A stretch of 12,458 bases of DNA from a virus (IMGVR_UViG_2645727562_000019), one strand, 5' to 3'. Counted from the first letter of the stretch, positions 5,269 through 10,043 are shown. The notes: generated by a model not told the origin, from the sequence alone. Numbers and translations: made by a program.

Positions 5269-6303
5269 TCAATATTTGATATACGCGTCCTGCACTTTGC
5301 CGCCAGCGATAGCCAACATTGCTTTCTGCGCGAATTCTTCGGGAATGCCTTGGGCTATCAGATCTGCGATTACTCTGCGGTTAACGGTACGGCGATGCTC
5401 TTTATCCGCAGCTCGGCGCGCTTCTTCGTCGGCGATACGCTTCTGTTCTTCAATGCGGGCTTTTTCTGCCTCCTCTTGGCGTCGGCGTTCCTCGGCAACG
5501 GCTTCTTCTTTTTCGCGTCGTGCACGCTGCTCTGCTTCAATTCGCTGACGTTCTGCTACTTCAGCACGTGCTTTCTCTTCCGCCGCCAGGCGTGCCGCAG
5601 CATCAATTTCAGCTTTCGCTTTTTGTTCAGCTTCGAGCCTGGCCTGTTCAGCAGCTTCCCGGCGGATATTCTCTTCTCGCTCAATGCGCGCTTTTTCCTC
5701 CGCTTCTTTGCGAAGTCTCTCCAGCTCAGCGGCTTCATGCTCGCGTTTTTGAGCTACTGCGAGTGATTCTTCCAGTTTCTGGATGGTTGAATCCTTGGCT
5801 ACTCCAGCTTCTGCTGCGTACTCCTGCCAACTCTCATCAAGTGCTACTGATTTAGCCTCTTGAATTCGTTCCTGAATATCAGTTGATGGCAAGTAGTTTC
5901 CGGAGAGATCGATCACGTCAGCCAGTGCTCGCAAATTTGTCAGGCGTTGTTGCAGTGCTTCAGTGCGTAATTTCTCAGCATTTTCCCACTCGGTGAGTGG
6001 GCGGCGTACTTCATCACGAAGCCGATCGCATTCGGTTACGAGGCGTCGTAACTCTGCTTCAACTACTTTCGGCTGTTCTTTCAGGCGTTTCAGATAATCA
6101 CGTCCTGGTTTTTCTACCGCTGTTTTACTTCTTGAAACCTTCGCAGCCAGAGATGCAATGCGCTTTCTGCCTTTGTCTGTGCTAATGTCAGGCACTTCAT
6201 TAACACCTTCACGGATCTGCTCGAGAAACTTTTCCAGTCCTTTTTCAACGTAAATTCTTGGTGCCATATCTGGTGTGATTTCGATGATTGATAATTCACT
6301 CAT
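5269..6303 (-). CDS. Coiled-coil protein with an E/A/R/K-rich low-complexity segment, function unknown
   Basis: 344-aa ORF with a strong GGGAGGAGG SD before ATG 6303. The central ~120 aa are repetitive (EAEEKARIERE..., AEQKAKAEIDAAARLAAEEKARAEVAERQRIEAEQRARREKEEA). Coding potential is supported by operon context and the ATGA overlap with the upstream small ORF. Confidence 0.7.
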   Translation of the reverse strand: MSELSIIEITPDMAPRIYVEKGLEKFLEQIREGVNEVPDISTDKGRKRIASLAAKVSRSKTAVEKPGRDYLKRLKEQPKVVEAELRRLVTECDRLRDEVRRPLTEWENAEKLRTEALQQRLTNLRALADVIDLSGNYLPSTDIQERIQEAKSVALDESWQEYAAEAGVAKDSTIQKLEESLAVAQKREHEAAELERLRKEAEEKARIEREENIRREAAEQARLEAEQKAKAEIDAAARLAAEEKARAEVAERQRIEAEQRARREKEEAVAEERRRQEEAEKARIEEQKRIADEEARRAADKEHRRTVNRRVIADLIAQGIPEEFAQKAMLAIAGGKVQDAYIKY

Positions 6304-6461
6304 TTGCTAACCTCCTCCCATAGCTCGTTATCGTTGGCTACATCGCGAGCTTCTTTGCTGACGAAAGCCCACTTAATGCCTTCCTGTAAGGTGCGGAACT
6401 TCCAGCTCATGAATCCGCATGCAGTAACGCAGTACCAACCGTTGATGATTTTCCACTGCAT
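6300..6461 (-). CDS. Small Trp-rich protein (53 aa), first gene of the leftward operon; absent from the ORF track (below 60 aa)
   Basis: Manual translation of the minus strand gives MQWKIINGWYCVTACGFMSWKFRTLQEGIKWAFVSKEARDVANDNELWEEVSK. ATG at 6461 with GAGG 9 nt upstream; stop TGA 6300-6302 overlaps the next ATG (ATGA). Confidence 0.45.
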   Translation of the reverse strand: MQWKIINGWYCVTACGFMSWKFRTLQEGIKWAFVSKEARDVANDNELWEEVSK

Positions 6462-6480
6462 AACTTGTTACCTCGGTTTG

Positions 6481-6557
6481 TTACCGTTGAGGTAATAATT
6501 ATGCGTATCTGGTTTGATGTCAATAGATATGAGTTAAAAAAATTACCCGTTAGGTAA
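6481..6557 (-). promoter_or_regulatory. PL-like early-left promoter with two operator palindromes
   Basis: Minus-strand TTGACA (-35) at 6518-6523 followed by an AT-rich -10 region. TTACCGTTGAGGTAA at 6481-6495 lies between the -10 and the mRNA start; TTACCCGTTAGGTAA at 6543-6557 lies 19 bp upstream of the -35. The layout mirrors lambda OL/PL. Confidence 0.6.
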
Positions 6558-6570
6558 TCTAATAGGCAAT

Positions 6571-6592
6571 AAAAAAGCCGCCAGAAGGCGGC
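6571..6592 (-). terminator. Intrinsic terminator ending the repressor transcript
   Basis: GCCGCC-agaa-GGCGGC stem-loop (6577-6592) followed on the minus strand by a U6 tract (A-run 6571-6576 on plus), 23 bp downstream of the repressor stop. Confidence 0.7.
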
Positions 6593-6614
6593 TTACTTAC
6601 TGAAAAATATGATT

Positions 6615-7199
6615 TTATTGTTTGTTTTTTTCGTTCTGGTTGATGACAAATTCAATGTAACTTTCGATCTTTGCTTTCTCGGTTTCGGGTAACAAAGCGT
6701 AGCGCGAGCGGTCATAGTTGATAGTCGCAGGGTCGTGCGGGTGAATCAGTAATTCATAGCCGTGACGCCCGAATGCGGATGCAACATTCTCCAGGGTGGA
6801 AATGGAAACGCTGACCTCATTGTTTAACAGGCGGCTGATTGTCACCTGGGCGACGCCGGATGCGCGGTGAAGTTTTCCCTGCGTTGAAAGGTCGCGGCTT
6901 TCGCTCATCCAGCGTTCCAGGTTGTGAGCCGCCAGCTGACCAATGTCGCTTGGTCCGACAGGCTGAAAACCTTCCTGAGAAAGCGAGCGATCGATATCAA
7001 GCCAGTTACGGGGTTTATTGGCGGCAGCTTCAATTTTTCGCGCAACCTGGTCGCCGATAACCTTCTTGCCAAGAGCCCAGCGGTTTACCAGATTTGCCTG
7101 AGTTCCAAGTTTTTCTGCCATCCGCGTCTGAACACCATTGAATTCACGGTCGATCAAGTCGTTGAGATTTTGCCTACGGACGTCCTGGATACTTTTCAT
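6615..7199 (-). CDS. Prophage repressor candidate (CI-like role): two XRE-type HTH domains, no recognisable S24 peptidase/autocleavage domain
   Basis: 194 aa. N-terminal HTH-like segment VQTRMAEKLGTQANLVNRWALGKK and a second HTH-like segment LSTQGKLHRASGVAQVTISRLLNNEVSVSISTLENVASAF. Divergent from the Cro-like gene with an operator cluster between them; no obvious SD before ATG 7199. Confidence 0.65.
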   Translation of the reverse strand: MKSIQDVRRQNLNDLIDREFNGVQTRMAEKLGTQANLVNRWALGKKVIGDQVARKIEAAANKPRNWLDIDRSLSQEGFQPVGPSDIGQLAAHNLERWMSESRDLSTQGKLHRASGVAQVTISRLLNNEVSVSISTLENVASAFGRHGYELLIHPHDPATINYDRSRYALLPETEKAKIESYIEFVINQNEKNKQ

Positions 7200-7254
7200 T
7201 TTCTGGAAAATCGCCTCATATATGAATCAGTAGATGATTCAATTTAAAGCAATA

Positions 7255-7328
7255 TTACCCAACAGGTAAATGCACCCCATAGGTAACCATCCTTGATTTT
7301 TGTTACCTTATGGGTGAATATTTATTAT
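7255..7328. promoter_or_regulatory. OR-like operator cluster with PR-like promoter
   Basis: Three palindromes: TTACCCAACAGGTAA (7255-7269), GCACCCCATAGGTAA (7272-7286) and TTACCTTATGGGTGA (7303-7317). Candidate rightward promoter TTGTTA (7300-7305), 17-bp spacer, TATTAT (7323-7328), 26 bp before the cro-like ATG. Confidence 0.55.
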
Positions 7329-7353
7329 CTGAAATAAATATCAGGCAATAGCT

Positions 7354-7584
7354 ATGAGCGATAACGAACATTTCGATTTCAAAAAGCACTGGCTTGCACT
7401 TACTCCAGATGAGCGTGAAGCCTTCGCACAGGAAGCCGGAACGACGAGTCACTATATCCAGACTCACTTAACAGGTAAGCGCAAAATGCCAGGTAAAGTA
7501 TTGATGAATGGGCTTTTTAAAGCCTGTAAATCAAGACAATGGTTGCGCTCAAAAGCAGAACTGGCATACTTCTTCTACTCATGA
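7354..7584 (+). CDS. Cro-like small HTH regulator
   Basis: 76-aa ORF divergent from the repressor and immediately downstream of the operator cluster. HTH-like segment AFAQEAGTTSHYIQTHLTGKRKMP. Followed by an intrinsic terminator. Confidence 0.55.
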   Translation: MSDNEHFDFKKHWLALTPDEREAFAQEAGTTSHYIQTHLTGKRKMPGKVLMNGLFKACKSRQWLRSKAELAYFFYS

Positions 7585-7605
7585 TATCCAGCCACAACCC
7601 TCTGT

Positions 7606-7628
7606 AGACCGCCATCCGGCGGTCTTTT
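7606..7628 (+). terminator. tR1-like intrinsic terminator after the Cro-like gene
   Basis: AGACCGCC-atcc-GGCGGTCT perfect 8-bp stem followed by TTT, 22 bp past the cro-like stop. Confidence 0.6.
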
Positions 7629-7639
7629 CATATCTATTC

Positions 7640-7654
7640 GCACCTCAAAGGTAA
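7640..7654. promoter_or_regulatory. Isolated operator-like palindrome between the tR1-like terminator and the zinc-ribbon gene
   Basis: GCACCTCAAAGGTAA, the same variant form as the OR site at 7272-7286. Confidence 0.35.
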
Positions 7655-7734
7655 TAAAAAACCAAATCTGGTTGATCTTTTTTTTGTGTCAGCACAAAAT
7701 AACCGTAATCCCAATACTAATAACAGGGCTTACC

Positions 7735-7935
7735 ATGGAAATCATTACACGTATTGATGCCGCAAAGCGCGGACTTAAACGCTACTACACCGGAAAACCA
7801 TGTAAGCACGGACATGACAGTGAACGCTGGGTTTACAACGGACACTGTGTTGAGTGCACCATGGAATCAAACCGTCGCATCAGGGCAGAGATTAAGCAGA
7901 TCATGATTAATTCCTCCCCACAACATTCAAGCTGA
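7735..7935 (+). CDS. Small zinc-ribbon protein (C-H...C-x2-C), in the position lambda gives to cII
   Basis: 66 aa from ATG 7735 (MEIITRIDAAKRGLKRYYTGKPCKHGHDSERWVYNGHCVECT...); AGGG lies 7 nt upstream. The track ORF starts earlier at TTG 7672, but that N-terminus looks non-coding. Confidence 0.55.
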   Translation: MEIITRIDAAKRGLKRYYTGKPCKHGHDSERWVYNGHCVECTMESNRRIRAEIKQIMINSSPQHSS

Positions 7936-7950
7936 TAGCGGAGATTAATC

Positions 7951-8790
7951 ATGAGCAGACATGCAACAGATTGGGCCTGGGAGACAGATCCAGGTAGCTC
8001 GTCATTAAAGCTCATACTGCTCTCGATGGCTGACAGAGCCGATGAATATAACCTCTGCTACCCCAGCATAGAACGCCTCGTTAAAGACACTTGCCTGAAT
8101 AAAAAAACCGTACAGGCCGGGCTTATATCGCTCATGAAAATGGGGCTTATTTCAGATACCGGAGAGAGAAAGGGAGCGACGAAAAGAGTGCGGGTTTTCT
8201 CTCTTAATATAACCAAAAAAGGGAACATTAAAGGCAACCTAGATGGGTGTAATGAACCCGAAAACGGTAATGTTCCCAAAAACGGGAATATACCCAAAAA
8301 CGGGATGTTGAATGATCCCAAAAACGGGATGTTGAATGATCCCAAAAACGGGATGTTGAATGATCCCAAAAACGGGATCCAGAACCAGTCATATAACCAG
8401 TCATTTAACCAAGAGAGGGAGAGCAGGACAAAAACCGGGGATTCTGTGCCTCATGACCCCGGCGCAAACAACGCCGTGATGAATAACTTTGTTCCTCCTG
8501 GTGGGCCAGGGCAATTAGGCAAATTTGTCATGCATGAACAATGGCAGCCATCAGATGACTTTCTTCGGAAAAGCTCATTGCAGGGAATCTACCTGGACAG
8601 TCTGCCAACGGCACAGGAACTTGCAGAGTTCAGAATTTACTGGATGGCTGAGGGTAAGGCATACCATCAGGCACAGTGGGAGCAGAAGCTGGCAAGGCGG
8701 CTGCAGATTAGCAGACAGAAGCAATCAACATTACCTGATAACAACGTTCCGCACTGGAACAGCCCTGAAGCATGGGAGGATTTCTTGTGA
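7951..8790 (+). CDS. Replication initiator (lambda O-like), N-terminal winged-helix DNA-binding domain, iterons embedded in the coding sequence
   Basis: 279 aa; GGAG SD 7 nt upstream. N-terminal DWAWETDPGSSSLKLILLSMADRADEYNLCYPSIERL resembles phage replication-initiator HTH domains. The middle encodes PKNGMLND x3 from iteron DNA, as in lambda O. Placed directly upstream of the P-like gene. Confidence 0.75.
   Translation: MSRHATDWAWETDPGSSSLKLILLSMADRADEYNLCYPSIERLVKDTCLNKKTVQAGLISLMKMGLISDTGERKGATKRVRVFSLNITKKGNIKGNLDGCNEPENGNVPKNGNIPKNGMLNDPKNGMLNDPKNGMLNDPKNGIQNQSYNQSFNQERESRTKTGDSVPHDPGANNAVMNNFVPPGGPGQLGKFVMHEQWQPSDDFLRKSSLQGIYLDSLPTAQELAEFRIYWMAEGKAYHQAQWEQKLARRLQISRQKQSTLPDNNVPHWNSPEAWEDFL
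8257..8378 (+). repeat. Origin-of-replication iterons: six copies of the CCCAAAAACGGGA core (three as the perfect 16-bp palindrome ATCCCAAAAACGGGAT)
   Basis: Cores start at 8257 (degenerate CCCGAAAACGGTA), 8275, 8293, 8317, 8341 and 8365, spaced 18, 18, 24, 24, 24 bp. Followed by the AT-richer direct repeat CCAGTCATATAACCAGTCATTTAACC (8383-8410). Confidence 0.8.
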
Positions 8791-9572
8791 ACAACGTTTT
8801 TACCGCGATACAAAACCGTGACGGAGAAGCCCTTTCTCGCATGTCAGGTTATGAGCATCAGTACACCAACAATGACAACGTGGTGAACATGTCAGCAGAG
8901 AGGCTTGTTGATGCCCTTTTCAAACAGCTGAAACAACTGTTTCCGGCGGCAGTGGTAACCAACCTGAAGACGCCAGAGCAGGAAGTTGCTGCAAAACAGC
9001 AGTGGATTGCTGCGTTTGCCGAAGGGGGGATCCGAACCCGTGAACAGGTTTCTGCTGGTATGCGCCACGCCCGCGCCAGTGAATCTCCGTTCTGGCCGTC
9101 GCCAGGGCAATTCATCAAGTGGTGTAAAGACAGCAAGATGGTTCTTGGCGTCACCATTGACGATGTGATGGCGGAGTTTCACCGGTACAGCAAGGAAAAA
9201 AGTTTATATCCTGGTGGTCCCGAAAGATTCCCGTGGCGACATCCGGTTATGTACTGGGTCGTATGTGATACCCGCCGTGCAATGTATCAGCGCCAGCTTA
9301 GCGAGATTGAGGTTGAGAAACACGCGCGCAGGCTGCTCGATGATTGGGCGAAAAAGGTGGCTTCCGGACAGCAGATACCCGATCCGGTGATCAGCATACA
9401 GGCAAAGCCAGAACCCATGAGTACACCTCCGGACACAGGGAGAGACGTTTACCATCCACCAGGGCGAAGTTTCGGGTGCATGCCTAACGCCGCCACCCTG
9501 GGGGGAATAACACCGGCGCAGTGGCTGATGGAGGAATACAGGCGGGGAAAGGCGGCAGGATTTATCAAGTAA
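8787..9572 (+). CDS. Replication protein P-like (DnaB helicase loader)
   Basis: Clear resemblance to lambda P as recalled: FPAAVVTNLKTPEQEVAAKQQWIAAFAEGGIRTREQVSAGMRHARASESPFWPSPGQFIKWCKDS against lambda FPASLA...RRQWVLAFRENGITTMEQVNAGMRVARRQNRPFLPSPGQFVAWCRE. Start taken at GTG 8787 with GGAGG 7 nt upstream (GTGA overlap with the O stop); the track alternative is ATG 8772. Confidence 0.85.
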   Translation: MNNVFTAIQNRDGEALSRMSGYEHQYTNNDNVVNMSAERLVDALFKQLKQLFPAAVVTNLKTPEQEVAAKQQWIAAFAEGGIRTREQVSAGMRHARASESPFWPSPGQFIKWCKDSKMVLGVTIDDVMAEFHRYSKEKSLYPGGPERFPWRHPVMYWVVCDTRRAMYQRQLSEIEVEKHARRLLDDWAKKVASGQQIPDPVISIQAKPEPMSTPPDTGRDVYHPPGRSFGCMPNAATLGGITPAQWLMEEYRRGKAAGFIK

Positions 9573-9577
9573 TACCA

Positions 9578-9597
9578 GCGCGATAGCGCATTTTTTT
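9578..9597 (+). terminator. Candidate intrinsic terminator after the P-like gene
   Basis: GCGC-gata-GCGC short GC stem followed by A-T7 (9590-9597), 6 bp after the P stop. The stem is short, so efficiency is uncertain. Confidence 0.4.
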
Positions 9598-9609
9598 ACG
9601 CCTCAATAG

Positions 9610-9686
9610 TTACCTGATGGGTAATAAAATATTCTAAAATCTATTGATTTCGTGTCTTATGTGGTTTTTAATTACCTCAGGGGTAA
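9610..9686 (+). promoter_or_regulatory. Third operator-controlled promoter, with the same architecture as the PL-like region
   Basis: TTACCTGATGGGTAA (9610-9624), 19 bp, TTGATT -35 (9644-9649), 22 bp, TTACCTCAGGGGTAA (9672-9686), then ATG at 9690. The gaps (19 and 22 bp) and the 62-bp operator centre spacing are identical to the PL-like region read on its coding strand. Confidence 0.55.
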
Positions 9687-9689
9687 ATC

Positions 9690-10043
9690 ATGAGAAAACA
9701 GATACAGGCTCTTGGTCGACTCAAAACAGGCCAGATGAACAAAACAGAATCTGCGTATTGCCAGCACCTTGAGCAGCGTAAACGTGCAGGGGAAATCGCC
9801 TGGTATCGATTCGAGGGTATCAAGCTGCGGTTAGCTGATAACTGCTTCCTGACTGTAGATTTTGCCGTGATGTTGGCTGACGGGCAGTTGGTGATGGTGG
9901 ACGTTAAGGGAAGTAAGTCAGTCTTTACTGACGATGCGAGAGTCAAGATGAAGGTTGCGGCAGACAGCTATCCGTTTGTCTTTCAGGTTGCTTATCCAAA
10001 ACCTAAAAAGCTCGGTGGTGGATGGGAGGTTGAGGAACTATGA
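9690..10043 (+). CDS. DUF1064-family protein (PD-(D/E)XK nuclease-like fold)
   Basis: 117 aa; pattern ESAYCQHLEQRKRAGEI...FEGIKLRL...VDFAVMLADGQLVMVDVKG...KMK fits the phage DUF1064 family signature as recalled (...AGEI...F.L...Y.ADF...VEDVKG...). Stop overlaps the next ATG (ATGA). Confidence 0.6.
   Translation: MRKQIQALGRLKTGQMNKTESAYCQHLEQRKRAGEIAWYRFEGIKLRLADNCFLTVDFAVMLADGQLVMVDVKGSKSVFTDDARVKMKVAADSYPFVFQVAYPKPKKLGGGWEVEEL

Follow-up and report, generated by a model that had tools for sequence, protein, structure and literature searches.

Predicted Rep operators at the early promoters of a phiV10-like Escherichia coli prophage

The RefSeq record of Salmonella phage epsilon15 (NC_004775.2) contains seven features annotated as "protein_bind: repressor, lysogeny", which may be predictions only. 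These features read (A)TTACC-N5-GGTAAT, and some of them are located far from the immunity region. The assignment of this type of palindrome to a phage repressor is therefore not new, as it is already in the public epsilon15 record. A second point of reference is SPC32H Rep, a structurally solved tetrameric repressor (PDB 5D50, 5D4Z) that combines an N-terminal DNA-binding domain with a looping-type tetramerisation domain, and in whose structure a distance of about 100 angstroms separates the two middle-domain pairs (PMC9986798). According to secondary sources, the SPC32H Rep tetramer binds palindromic sites and one tetramer is enough for repression. The C-terminal domain of SPC32H Rep has the same tetramerisation fold as Rco of plasmid pLS20, in which an N-terminal HTH is joined to a p53-like tetramerisation domain and which loops operators located 75 bp apart (PMC9986798).

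Here we describe a family of palindromes in a window of 12,458 nucleotides (IMGVR_UViG_2645727562_000019), which covers the early region of an E. coli prophage of the phiV10 type (genus Uetakevirus); phiV10 is 98% identical to it over positions 6314-9842. A motif scan identified five perfect copies of TTACC-N5-GGTAA, at 6481-6495, 6543-6557, 7255-7269, 9610-9624 and 9672-9686, the same coordinates as those reported in the initial annotation, and the copy with one mismatch that had been placed at 7303-7317 is also present. Only 0.01 perfect copies are expected by chance in the window, five copies were found in 0 of 200 shuffles, and TTACC was the sole half-site, among all half-sites, to give more than one perfect 5-N5-5 palindrome. 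The density of the motif in the host, which had been proposed as a check, leads to the same answer, because no perfect copy was found in 100 kb of E. coli K-12 DNA scanned. Thus, the palindrome family is real and not a product of chance. The GCACC-N5-GGTAA variants claimed at 7272-7286 and 7640-7654 were recovered too, but they are not established by counting, because matches with two mismatches are a common background: shuffles predict 3.2 of them per window, E. coli K-12 contains 27-28 per 50 kb, and six further ones are present in the window, all within genes. They are supported instead by their orthologous sites, which are perfect or have one mismatch. At the position of 7272, epsilon15 and SPC32H carry a perfect TTACC palindrome. 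For 7640, the counterpart in phiV10 and Tyrion is GTACC, a single mismatch; 51 of 80 viral contigs share this form, and one contig has a perfect TTACC. All eight sites are intergenic, as had been claimed, and are contained in four gaps (6461/6615, 7199/7354, 7584/7735 and 9572/9690).

The leftward promoter PL (6495-6523, minus strand) consists of TTGACA (6523-6518) and AATTAT (6500-6495) separated by a 17-nt spacer; it was called by the promoter scan with 10 of 12 consensus positions, and its -35 is conserved in five phages. The leftward early operon that starts here contains a small ORF at 6300-6461, followed by genes for a 344-aa protein, a DUF3799 nuclease, RecT and an MT-A70 protein. The predicted PL-proximal operator, a perfect palindrome (TTACCgttgaGGTAA, 6481-6495), begins at the final base of the PL -10 hexamer, with its centre near +1. 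The predicted PL-distal operator, also perfect (TTACCcgttaGGTAA, 6543-6557), is located next to a T-run at about -61.5, which places the two centres 62 bp apart. A terminator-like hairpin with a T-run follows the rep gene (6575-6594, minus strand); it was detected by the scan and is annotated as a terminator in phiV10.

Three sites, spaced 17 and 31 bp apart, are present between 7199 and 7354, the region that we refer to as OR. The predicted operator nearest to rep (TTACCcaacaGGTAA, 7255-7269) is perfect, is invariant in 80 of 80 contigs, and overlaps the putative leftward rep promoter TTACCT-17-TAAATT, which was read by eye. The middle site (GCACCccataGGTAA, 7272-7286), 17 bp from the first, has a degenerate left half. 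The third site (TTACCttatgGGTGA, 7303-7317), supported by the motif scan, the promoter scan and conservation, carries one mismatch and sits on the rightward promoter between a conserved -35, TTGATT (7293-7298), and the -10 region. Next comes the cro-like gene (7354-7584, plus strand), which was assigned by homology and predicted fold and encodes a 76-aa all-helical protein. It is followed by a terminator (7606-7625, plus strand) that was found by the scan and is annotated in phiV10.

Beyond this terminator, the predicted operator GCACCtcaaaGGTAA (7640-7654) has its centre about 60 bp upstream of the predicted start of a putative promoter with TTGATC at 7672-7677, a 17-nt spacer and CAAAAT at 7695-7700. 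This promoter, read by eye and conserved in five phages, would drive a 66-aa ORF, a dnaT-like gene and gene P. A short conserved hairpin (GCGC-N4-GCGC followed by T7; 9578-9597, plus strand), annotated as a terminator in phiV10, is located after gene P. Downstream of it we infer a post-P promoter (9644-9672, plus strand) from inspection by eye and five-phage conservation, with TTGATT (9644-9649), a 17-nt spacer and TTTAAT (9667-9672). The promoter scanner, run on the window, did not report the post-P, post-terminator and rep promoters; in the case of the post-P promoter this can be attributed to its -10, which has no A at position 2. Two perfect predicted operators flank the post-P promoter: a distal one at about -61.5 (TTACCtgatgGGTAA, 9610-9624), and a proximal one (TTACCtcaggGGTAA, 9672-9686) that covers approximately +1 and the ribosome-binding region, and whose GGTAAatcATG is invariant even when the downstream gene differs. 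PL and post-P therefore have the same layout: an operator covers the start site, and a second one is located 62 bp upstream of the first. In the PL, post-terminator and post-P regions, 19.5 bp separate a second recurring motif, approximately AACCATATATGGTT, from the centre of an operator, and in PL and post-P the motif is also 42.5 bp from the other operator; these spacings would place both operators and the motif on one face of the helix. It was not found in the rep/cro intergenic region.

Taken together, the data support four predicted operator-controlled promoter regions in the window: PL, OR with its three sites, the region after the cro-like terminator, and post-P. The initial annotation had proposed a three-promoter regulon extending beyond the PL/PR pair. 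The clustering at promoters and the extension, to the post-terminator and post-P regions, stand, but the number has to be raised to four, because the site at 7640 belongs to a separate promoter.

In the PL and post-P modules alike, all 20 half-site columns are invariant among five phages, compared with 3 of the 10 spacer columns. In the 80 viral contigs, variability is 0.001-0.002 in the half-sites, 0.13-0.26 in the spacers and 0.04 in the flanks. Half-sites that are (nearly) invariant while the N5 varies freely fit recognition by a protein, and not an RNA structure. It could be argued that the palindromes act as RNA hairpins in processing, stability or translational control, since the ribosome-binding region falls within the proximal post-P site, folding of the 21-nt segments gives -2 to -6.5 kcal/mol, and the epsilon15 record has RNase III sites elsewhere. 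We consider this exceedingly unlikely: the stems are weak and only 5 bp long, most z-scores are unremarkable, a search of Rfam gave no match, and the distal sites are located upstream of their own promoters, past terminators. Moreover, compensatory stem changes are absent; fixed stems with varying loops are the mark of a protein that contacts specific bases. The PL and post-P modules are alike beyond their operators, which might suggest that the copies are functionless remnants of duplicated promoter modules, if not chance matches. However, across hosts ranging from E. coli to Serratia the half-sites are invariant whereas the bases next to them change, and the shuffles, none of which reached the observed count, the K-12 scan, and the conservation in five phages and 80 contigs effectively refute both versions, leaving them next to no probability.

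Which protein reads the sites? The rep gene (6615-7199, minus strand) encodes a 194-aa repressor that phmmer, alignment and Pfam identify as a full-length homologue of SPC32H Rep (phmmer against PDB 5D50, E = 4e-42 over residues 1-190). Using the domain names of PMC9986798, it comprises an N-terminal DNA-binding domain, a middle HTH_3-like domain and a C-terminal tetramerisation/Ant-binding domain, the C-terminus aligning to the SPC32H Rep tetramerisation domain. Pfam gives only HTH-type domains, and an S24 peptidase domain is absent. The earlier description of this protein as a "dual-HTH" repressor needs a qualification: the SPC32H structure describes the second HTH-like domain as a dimerisation domain, which is not known to read DNA in addition. 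Helix residues N36, L37, R40 and W41 are invariant among homologues that are 41-78% identical to the window Rep, in keeping with the invariant half-site. Overlap with or proximity to sigma-70-type promoters, invariant half-sites, homology to SPC32H Rep and the epsilon15 annotation all favour the original proposal that the sites are operators of the adjacent repressor. On this sequence evidence, the TTACC-N5-GGTAA palindromes are very probably operators of the prophage Rep, a repressor of the epsilon15/SPC32H type that would not be cleaved in response to RecA.

An alternative is that the Cro-like protein is the main reader of the palindromes and that Rep recognises another sequence, for instance AACCATATATGGTT, a motif in need of a binder. 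Like the half-site, the Cro-like protein is highly conserved: among four enterobacterial phages it is 78-86% identical (epsilon15, SPC32H and Tyrion), and 54% in Serratia. It is probably an HTH protein; a Pfam search with it gave no match, and its predicted fold is weakly similar to that of lambda-repressor-like/YdaS HTH domains (TM 0.57-0.62, E > 1). Because it is more conserved than Rep, conservation cannot tell which of the two proteins reads the sites. Nevertheless, the alternative is improbable. The epsilon15 record gives the sites to the repressor, the residues of the Rep DNA-binding helix are invariant, and the sites that relatives have before late, lysis and integrase genes suit a protein present in the lysogen; besides, AACCATATATGGTT is missing from the rep/cro gap, where the repressor must act. 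Rep and the Cro-like protein sharing sites, in the fashion of lambda, is compatible with Rep as the main reader.

The sites around rep, around the cro-like gene and after the replication genes correspond one by one in phiV10, Tyrion, epsilon15 and SPC32H. Complete related genomes contain 8-11 perfect sites each, compared with about 0.5-0.7 expected at up to one mismatch. All five phages have the 62-bp spacing, as do 152 of the 154 such pairs counted in the 80 contigs. It is not universal: a Serratia prophage, with a Rep of 54% identity, has retained the motif, but its pairs are 75 and 18 bp apart. The complete relatives have additional sites before terminase, head, tailspike, lysis and integrase genes, which supports a regulon that would cover nearly every transcription unit, late genes included. 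In the late-gene regions, the operator precedes the likely -10 by about 70-90 bp, no obvious place to block RNA polymerase. This location, together with the distal sites at about -61.5, a classical activator position, could mean that the palindromes bind a phage activator or a host regulator, with the distal sites acting as class-I-type activator sites. Such a role is very unlikely, more so than reading by the Cro-like protein, given that the proximal sites over -10/+1 at PL and post-P and the OR site in the rightward promoter spacer occupy repressing positions, that the motif is densest around rep, and that the rep region has no other adjacent conserved DNA-binding gene. A host regulator is further opposed by the absence of the motif from the 100 kb of host DNA.

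Assuming that Rep is the reader, the closest system is that of epsilon15, which belongs to the same genus and has the identical motif, (A)TTACC-N5-GGTAA(T), the same gene order, and sites at the left promoter, after the replication genes and beyond the immunity region. In our scan, epsilon15 had 11 perfect matches among a total of 15 when up to one mismatch was allowed, whereas the record lists only seven; one of these is at the position matching 9610, and neither the three OR sites nor the proximal post-P site is included. Epsilon15 differs in that its PL leader is longer and holds a third site, that two adjacent OR sites are both perfect where the window has one perfect and one degenerate, and that its Rep is only 42% identical. 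The SPC32H Rep/Ant switch shares full-length Rep homology, the same palindromes at the same positions and the lack of an autocleavage domain. PhiV10-type phages have an Ant homologue, that of phiV10 being 88% identical to SPC32H Ant and located beside a LexA-box-like CTGT-N8-ACAG, outside the region covered by the window. On the other hand, the SPC32H Rep is about 41% identical, its host is Salmonella instead of E. coli, and the window itself has no antirepressor gene.

The CI-Cro systems of lambda, P22 and 434 resemble the locus in their divergent repressor and cro-like genes, three palindromes over two opposed promoters (that of rep being putative), a separate left promoter with its own operators, and half-sites one helical turn apart. 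Unlike those repressors, the window Rep is of a tetrameric type and lacks the S24 RecA-dependent cleavage domain; the OR spacing is 17 and 31 bp instead of about 24 bp; and fixed 62-bp operator pairs bracket promoters. In addition, predicted repressor-controlled promoters follow terminators here, whereas lambda reads through by N-mediated antitermination. The stoperators of mycobacteriophage L5, bound by gp71, are asymmetric 13-mers that are oriented with transcription inside operons and stop elongation. The many predicted repressor sites genome-wide, late regions included, are reminiscent of L5, but the sites described here are symmetric and lie at promoters past terminators, not inside transcribed operons, and we therefore do not class them as stoperators. 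Finally, the 75-bp bridging by Rco parallels the 62-bp pairs. However, Rco acts through several tetramers on arrays of direct 8-bp repeats; here the sites are single palindromes, and looping by Rep is putative.

In the mechanism that we propose, two N-terminal HTH domains would read the two half-sites, one helical turn apart, and one Rep tetramer, having two DNA-binding pairs, could hold two palindromes together. The 62 bp at PL and post-P amount to about six turns, so that both sites would be on the same helix face, one over -10/+1 and the other, at about -61.5, abutting an A/T-rich tract at the position of an UP element. With both filled, RNA polymerase would be blocked and the promoter DNA bent or looped. 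As the middle-domain pairs are about 100 angstroms apart and 62 bp correspond to about 210 angstroms of straight DNA, bridging would need strong bending. At OR, the site within the rightward promoter would repress the lytic promoter, and the two sites 17 bp apart, over or beside the likely rep promoter, may allow autoregulation, while the degenerate site at 7640 would serve the weaker promoter after the cro-like terminator. Every early unit would thus begin past a terminator with its own repressor-controlled promoter, and the same may hold in relatives for the late, lysis, antirepressor/tailspike and integrase regions. With repressor-controlled promoters at so many units, lysogeny would be held by direct repression, and, judging from the relatives, induction would proceed via a LexA-controlled antirepressor encoded outside the window, not via repressor cleavage. 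The sequences show the sites, their placement relative to the promoters, how they are conserved and the homology of Rep; from these we infer that Rep binds the sites, that a tetramer bridges pairs 62 bp apart, that Rep controls its own gene and that the Cro-like protein may play a part.

The 62-bp pairs and AACCATATATGGTT may together form a composite operator, in which one Rep tetramer wraps the promoter and the Rep middle domain or a second regulator reads AACCATATATGGTT. This proposal is speculative, and we regard it as rather unlikely, but if it is true, the Uetakeviruses would replace the lambda antitermination cascade by repression that acts directly, through looping, on every transcription unit. 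Only the fixed pairing and AACCATATATGGTT may be worth experimental work. The wider outcome is a regulatory map in which four predicted repressor-controlled promoters, which phiV10-type records do not annotate, define the early units of a type of prophage that is common in E. coli. The half-site is the same in all relatives analysed, with hosts from E. coli to Serratia, and immunity may therefore be shared within the genus to a far greater extent than among the lambdoid phages; the map would be useful for engineering phiV10-based reporter phages and for forecasting cross-immunity.

Five perfect copies of the palindrome TTACC-N5-GGTAA are present in the window, starting at positions 6481, 6543, 7255, 9610 and 9672, where 0.01 would be expected by chance. 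A pattern search thus returned exactly the perfect copies that the initial annotation had reported; none of the shuffles of the window attained five, and TTACC is the one half-site for which the window has two or more perfect 5-N5-5 palindromes. The set is completed by a site with one mismatch (7303) and by two sites with two mismatches each (7272 and 7640), both of which have GCACC as their left half. Since two-mismatch matches are ordinary background (3.2 expected in the window, and 27-28 per 50 kb in E. coli K-12), these GCACC variants, although indeed present, are backed by comparative evidence, that is, by the matching sites of relatives, rather than by counts. All eight sites lie between genes, as had been claimed, and the 100 kb of E. 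coli K-12 that were scanned contain no perfect site. It was also considered whether the palindromes could be restriction-modification target sites; this was ruled out because they occur only at intergenic promoters.

The stretch that spans all operators (6314-9842) is 97-98% identical to the Escherichia phages phiV10, PAS61 and phiv142-3, which belong to the genus Uetakevirus of epsilon15-like temperate podoviruses, and E. coli chromosomes carry similar prophages. The integrase gene (1-1257) is accompanied by a leftward early operon for an MT-A70 methylase, RecT, a DUF3799 nuclease, a 344-aa protein and a 53-aa ORF (end at 6461), followed by the repressor gene rep (6615-7199, minus strand), the 76-aa cro-like gene (7354-7584), a 66-aa ORF (7735-7935), the genes for a DnaT-like initiator (7951-8790) and a lambda-P-like protein (8772-9572), and a DUF1064 gene (9690-10043), then accessory genes. 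The 66-aa ORF, which is kept after the cro-like terminator in relatives, has a CxxGH...CxxC pattern, possibly a zinc ribbon, and gave no match in a Pfam search. Within the initiator gene, iteron-like tandem arrays were observed at 8249-8411 (an 18-bp unit repeated 3.1 times, the perfect 24-bp unit CCCAAAAACGGGATGTTGAATGAT 3.6 times and a 12-bp unit 2.4 times); by analogy with lambda O, they probably mark the replication origin inside the initiator gene.

The leftward early promoter PL was identified on the minus strand with a promoter scanner (TTGACA 6523-6518, a 17-nt spacer and AATTAT 6500-6495). The operator at 6481-6495 starts at the last base of its -10 box and is therefore centred at about +1, and the operator at 6543-6557, which is followed by a T-run, has its centre at about -61.5. 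The region after the lambda-P-like gene (post-P) matches this arrangement base for base. It consists of a short hairpin plus T7 (9578-9597), the operator at 9610-9624, the A/T-rich TAAAATATT, a candidate promoter found by eye (TTGATT 9644-9649, a 17-nt spacer and TTTAAT 9667-9672, a -10 box that falls outside the scanner's rule), and the operator at 9672-9686. The latter leads into GGTAAatcATG, a segment that is invariant even where the downstream gene of the phages differs. The resemblance suggests that PL and post-P are a duplicated promoter-operator cassette. The PL module (6475-6569) and the post-P module (9598-9692) also have ATCTATTGA around the -35 box in common. Centre to centre, the paired sites are 62 bp apart in all five phages compared (that of the window, phiV10, epsilon15, Tyrion and SPC32H) and, in the contig set, in 152 of the 154 pairs of this kind; the spacing holds although the DNA between the two modules differs in length.

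The rep/cro-like intergenic region (OR) contains the sites 7255, 7272 and 7303, with spacings of 17 and 31 bp. Site 7303 lies between the conserved -35 box (TTGATT, 7293-7298) and the -10 region of the rightward promoter, and sites 7255 and 7272 would cover or flank a weak leftward candidate promoter for rep (TTACCT-17-TAAATT). Site 7640 is located directly past the cro-like terminator (7606-7625). About 60 bp downstream of this site is the start point of a conserved candidate promoter (TTGATC-17-CAAAAT), where there is also a TAACC half-site. Thus, the proposed clustering at PL, OR and post-P holds, but the window contains four operator regions, not three.

Each of four complete genomes (phiV10, epsilon15, Tyrion and SPC32H) has 14-18 sites when up to one mismatch is allowed, where 0.5-0.7 would be expected. 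As we read the annotations, the perfect sites are non-coding and occupy corresponding places in these genomes: upstream of terS and of the head operon, adjoining the antirepressor/tailspike genes, downstream of the replication genes, and at PL and OR. Ahead of the lysis genes, the site is perfect in epsilon15 only, with one mismatch in the other complete genomes; a one-mismatch copy before int is conserved in the relatives, which also have a degenerate copy after the cro-like terminator. These sites before terS, head, ant/tailspike and lysis genes bear out the view that the regulon extends beyond PL and PR. In epsilon15 and SPC32H the counterpart of 7272 is a perfect palindrome, and the counterpart of 7640 has GTACC in phiV10, Tyrion and 51 of the 80 viral contigs, and TTACC in one contig.

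Three perfect sites within two annotated ORFs, at the phiV10 terS start and in Tyrion gp39, are apparent exceptions, and both gene calls look wrong. The start of phiV10 terS (41-715) at position 41 places two operator-like sites (87-119) within the gene, unlike in epsilon15 and Tyrion, whose terS begins directly downstream of them; Tyrion gp39 (34059-34271) is an ORF overlying the PL promoter and its operators. All four complete genomes keep a near-operator, TTACCyTAAAGGTAT, in the DNA from the attP region to the integrase start (in phiV10, 26870-26884), immediately upstream of window position 1; its role is ambiguous because the epsilon15 record annotates an integrase-binding site there.

Conservation was compared in the aligned PL and post-P modules. 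Among the five phages, 20 of 20 half-site columns are invariant, as are 3 of 10 columns in the N5 spacers and 43-51% of other positions. In the 80 viral contigs (IMG/VR), from a scan that retained only loci with a 100%-identical Rep, the repressor, variability is 0.001-0.002 in the half-sites, 0.13-0.26 in the N5 spacers and 0.04 elsewhere. Fixed arms and free centres fit base-specific protein contacts. On the other hand, palindromes could act as RNA hairpins, but the lack of compensatory changes beside these fixed arms and free centres, together with their weakness when folded, argues against it; an Rfam search of the window returned no family. At the sites matching 6543 and 9610/9672, the variability of the N5 spacers exceeds that of the adjoining non-coding DNA 3- to 6-fold, and they are the fastest-changing positions of these regions in the contigs. 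The motif is retained in a Serratia prophage with a Rep of 54% identity and is unchanged at the loci of the most distant Rep homologues found (52-54% identity, Serratia), and an inverted-repeat search of the Serratia loci revealed no alternative palindrome. Repressor-operator covariation was therefore set aside, as identical contig Reps and a motif kept in distant Serratia offer no specificity change to compare.

Binding of the palindromes by Rep is the best-supported reading. The 194-aa window repressor is a full-length homologue of SPC32H Rep (PDB 5D50, E = 4e-42), for which secondary sources describe N-terminal DNA-binding, middle dimerisation and C-terminal tetramerisation/antirepressor-binding domains (PMC9986798) and a tetramer on palindromic sites, one tetramer being enough for repression. 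Pfam detected HTH_3 mid-protein and a weak HTH-like match at the N-terminus of the window Rep, and no S24 cleavage domain. In the recognition-helix region, N36, L37, R40 and W41 are invariant among homologues 41-78% identical to it, in keeping with the unchanged half-site. The Cro-like protein shows strong conservation and is probably an HTH protein, judging from a single-sequence structure model with weak HTH-like matches only; it has no sequence match in the PDB and none in Pfam. As in lambda, it may well share the palindromes, but it is unlikely to be the only protein to read them, given that sites in front of late, lysis and integrase genes suit a protein present in the lysogen.

If Rep binds as a tetramer, one molecule could occupy two sites, either adjacent pairs 17-18 bp apart or the 62-bp pairs, which bracket a promoter on the same helix face and might be bridged. 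Each early transcription unit would begin downstream of a terminator, with its own Rep-controlled promoter, and late units in relatives have the same arrangement; at OR, rep would be autoregulated. With no cleavage domain in Rep, induction would be expected to occur through a LexA-controlled antirepressor. A homologue with 88% identity to SPC32H Ant is encoded in phiV10, in a region not covered by the window, and a LexA-box-like CTGT-N8-ACAG adjoins the start of its gene (phiV10 ~20815-20845), which suggests that the antirepressor of phiV10-type phages may be under SOS control.

A second motif, with core CATATGTGGTT and roughly the palindrome AACCATATATGGTT, has seven matches at no more than one mismatch in phiV10, against 0.7 expected. 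Its copies in the window (6501-6514, 7660-7673 and 9653-9666) and those at phiV10 3308, 20921 and 24739 lie within or adjoin the PL, post-terminator, post-P, head, tailspike and lysis core promoters; it is absent at OR. All three window copies are 19.5 bp from an operator centre, and those at PL and post-P are also 42.5 bp from the other operator. DnaA, NrdR and MqsA-type boxes, which the motif resembles with mismatches, were considered and dropped.

The epsilon15 RefSeq record lists seven 'protein_bind: repressor, lysogeny' features with the sequence (A)TTACC-N5-GGTAAT: three at the left promoter, one after the replication genes (matching 9610), and one each before the terminase, head and tailspike genes. 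Sites that fit the motif and are absent from that record are the three at OR (epsilon15 33341-33402), the proximal post-P site (35969-35983) and the pre-lysis site (24704-24718). In the literature, text searches for this motif or for the operators of phiV10 or SPC32H returned secondary mentions only, and the ZX5 paper discusses repressor and antirepressor and does not define the operator. The window set corresponds by orthology to the epsilon15 sites and probably forms part of an SPC32H-type Rep/Ant switch. Divergent repressor and cro genes, a tripartite OR and a separate PL resemble a lambda-type switch; however, Rep lacks the autocleavage domain that defines that family, and site spacing, repressor oligomeric state and the number of directly repressed promoters also differ. 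In this phage, whose records carry no such annotation, the palindrome set thus counts as a correct rediscovery. New here are the fourth region, the OR triple and proximal post-P site omitted by the epsilon15 record, the strict 62-bp geometry common to PL and the post-P promoter, and the population-level footprint.
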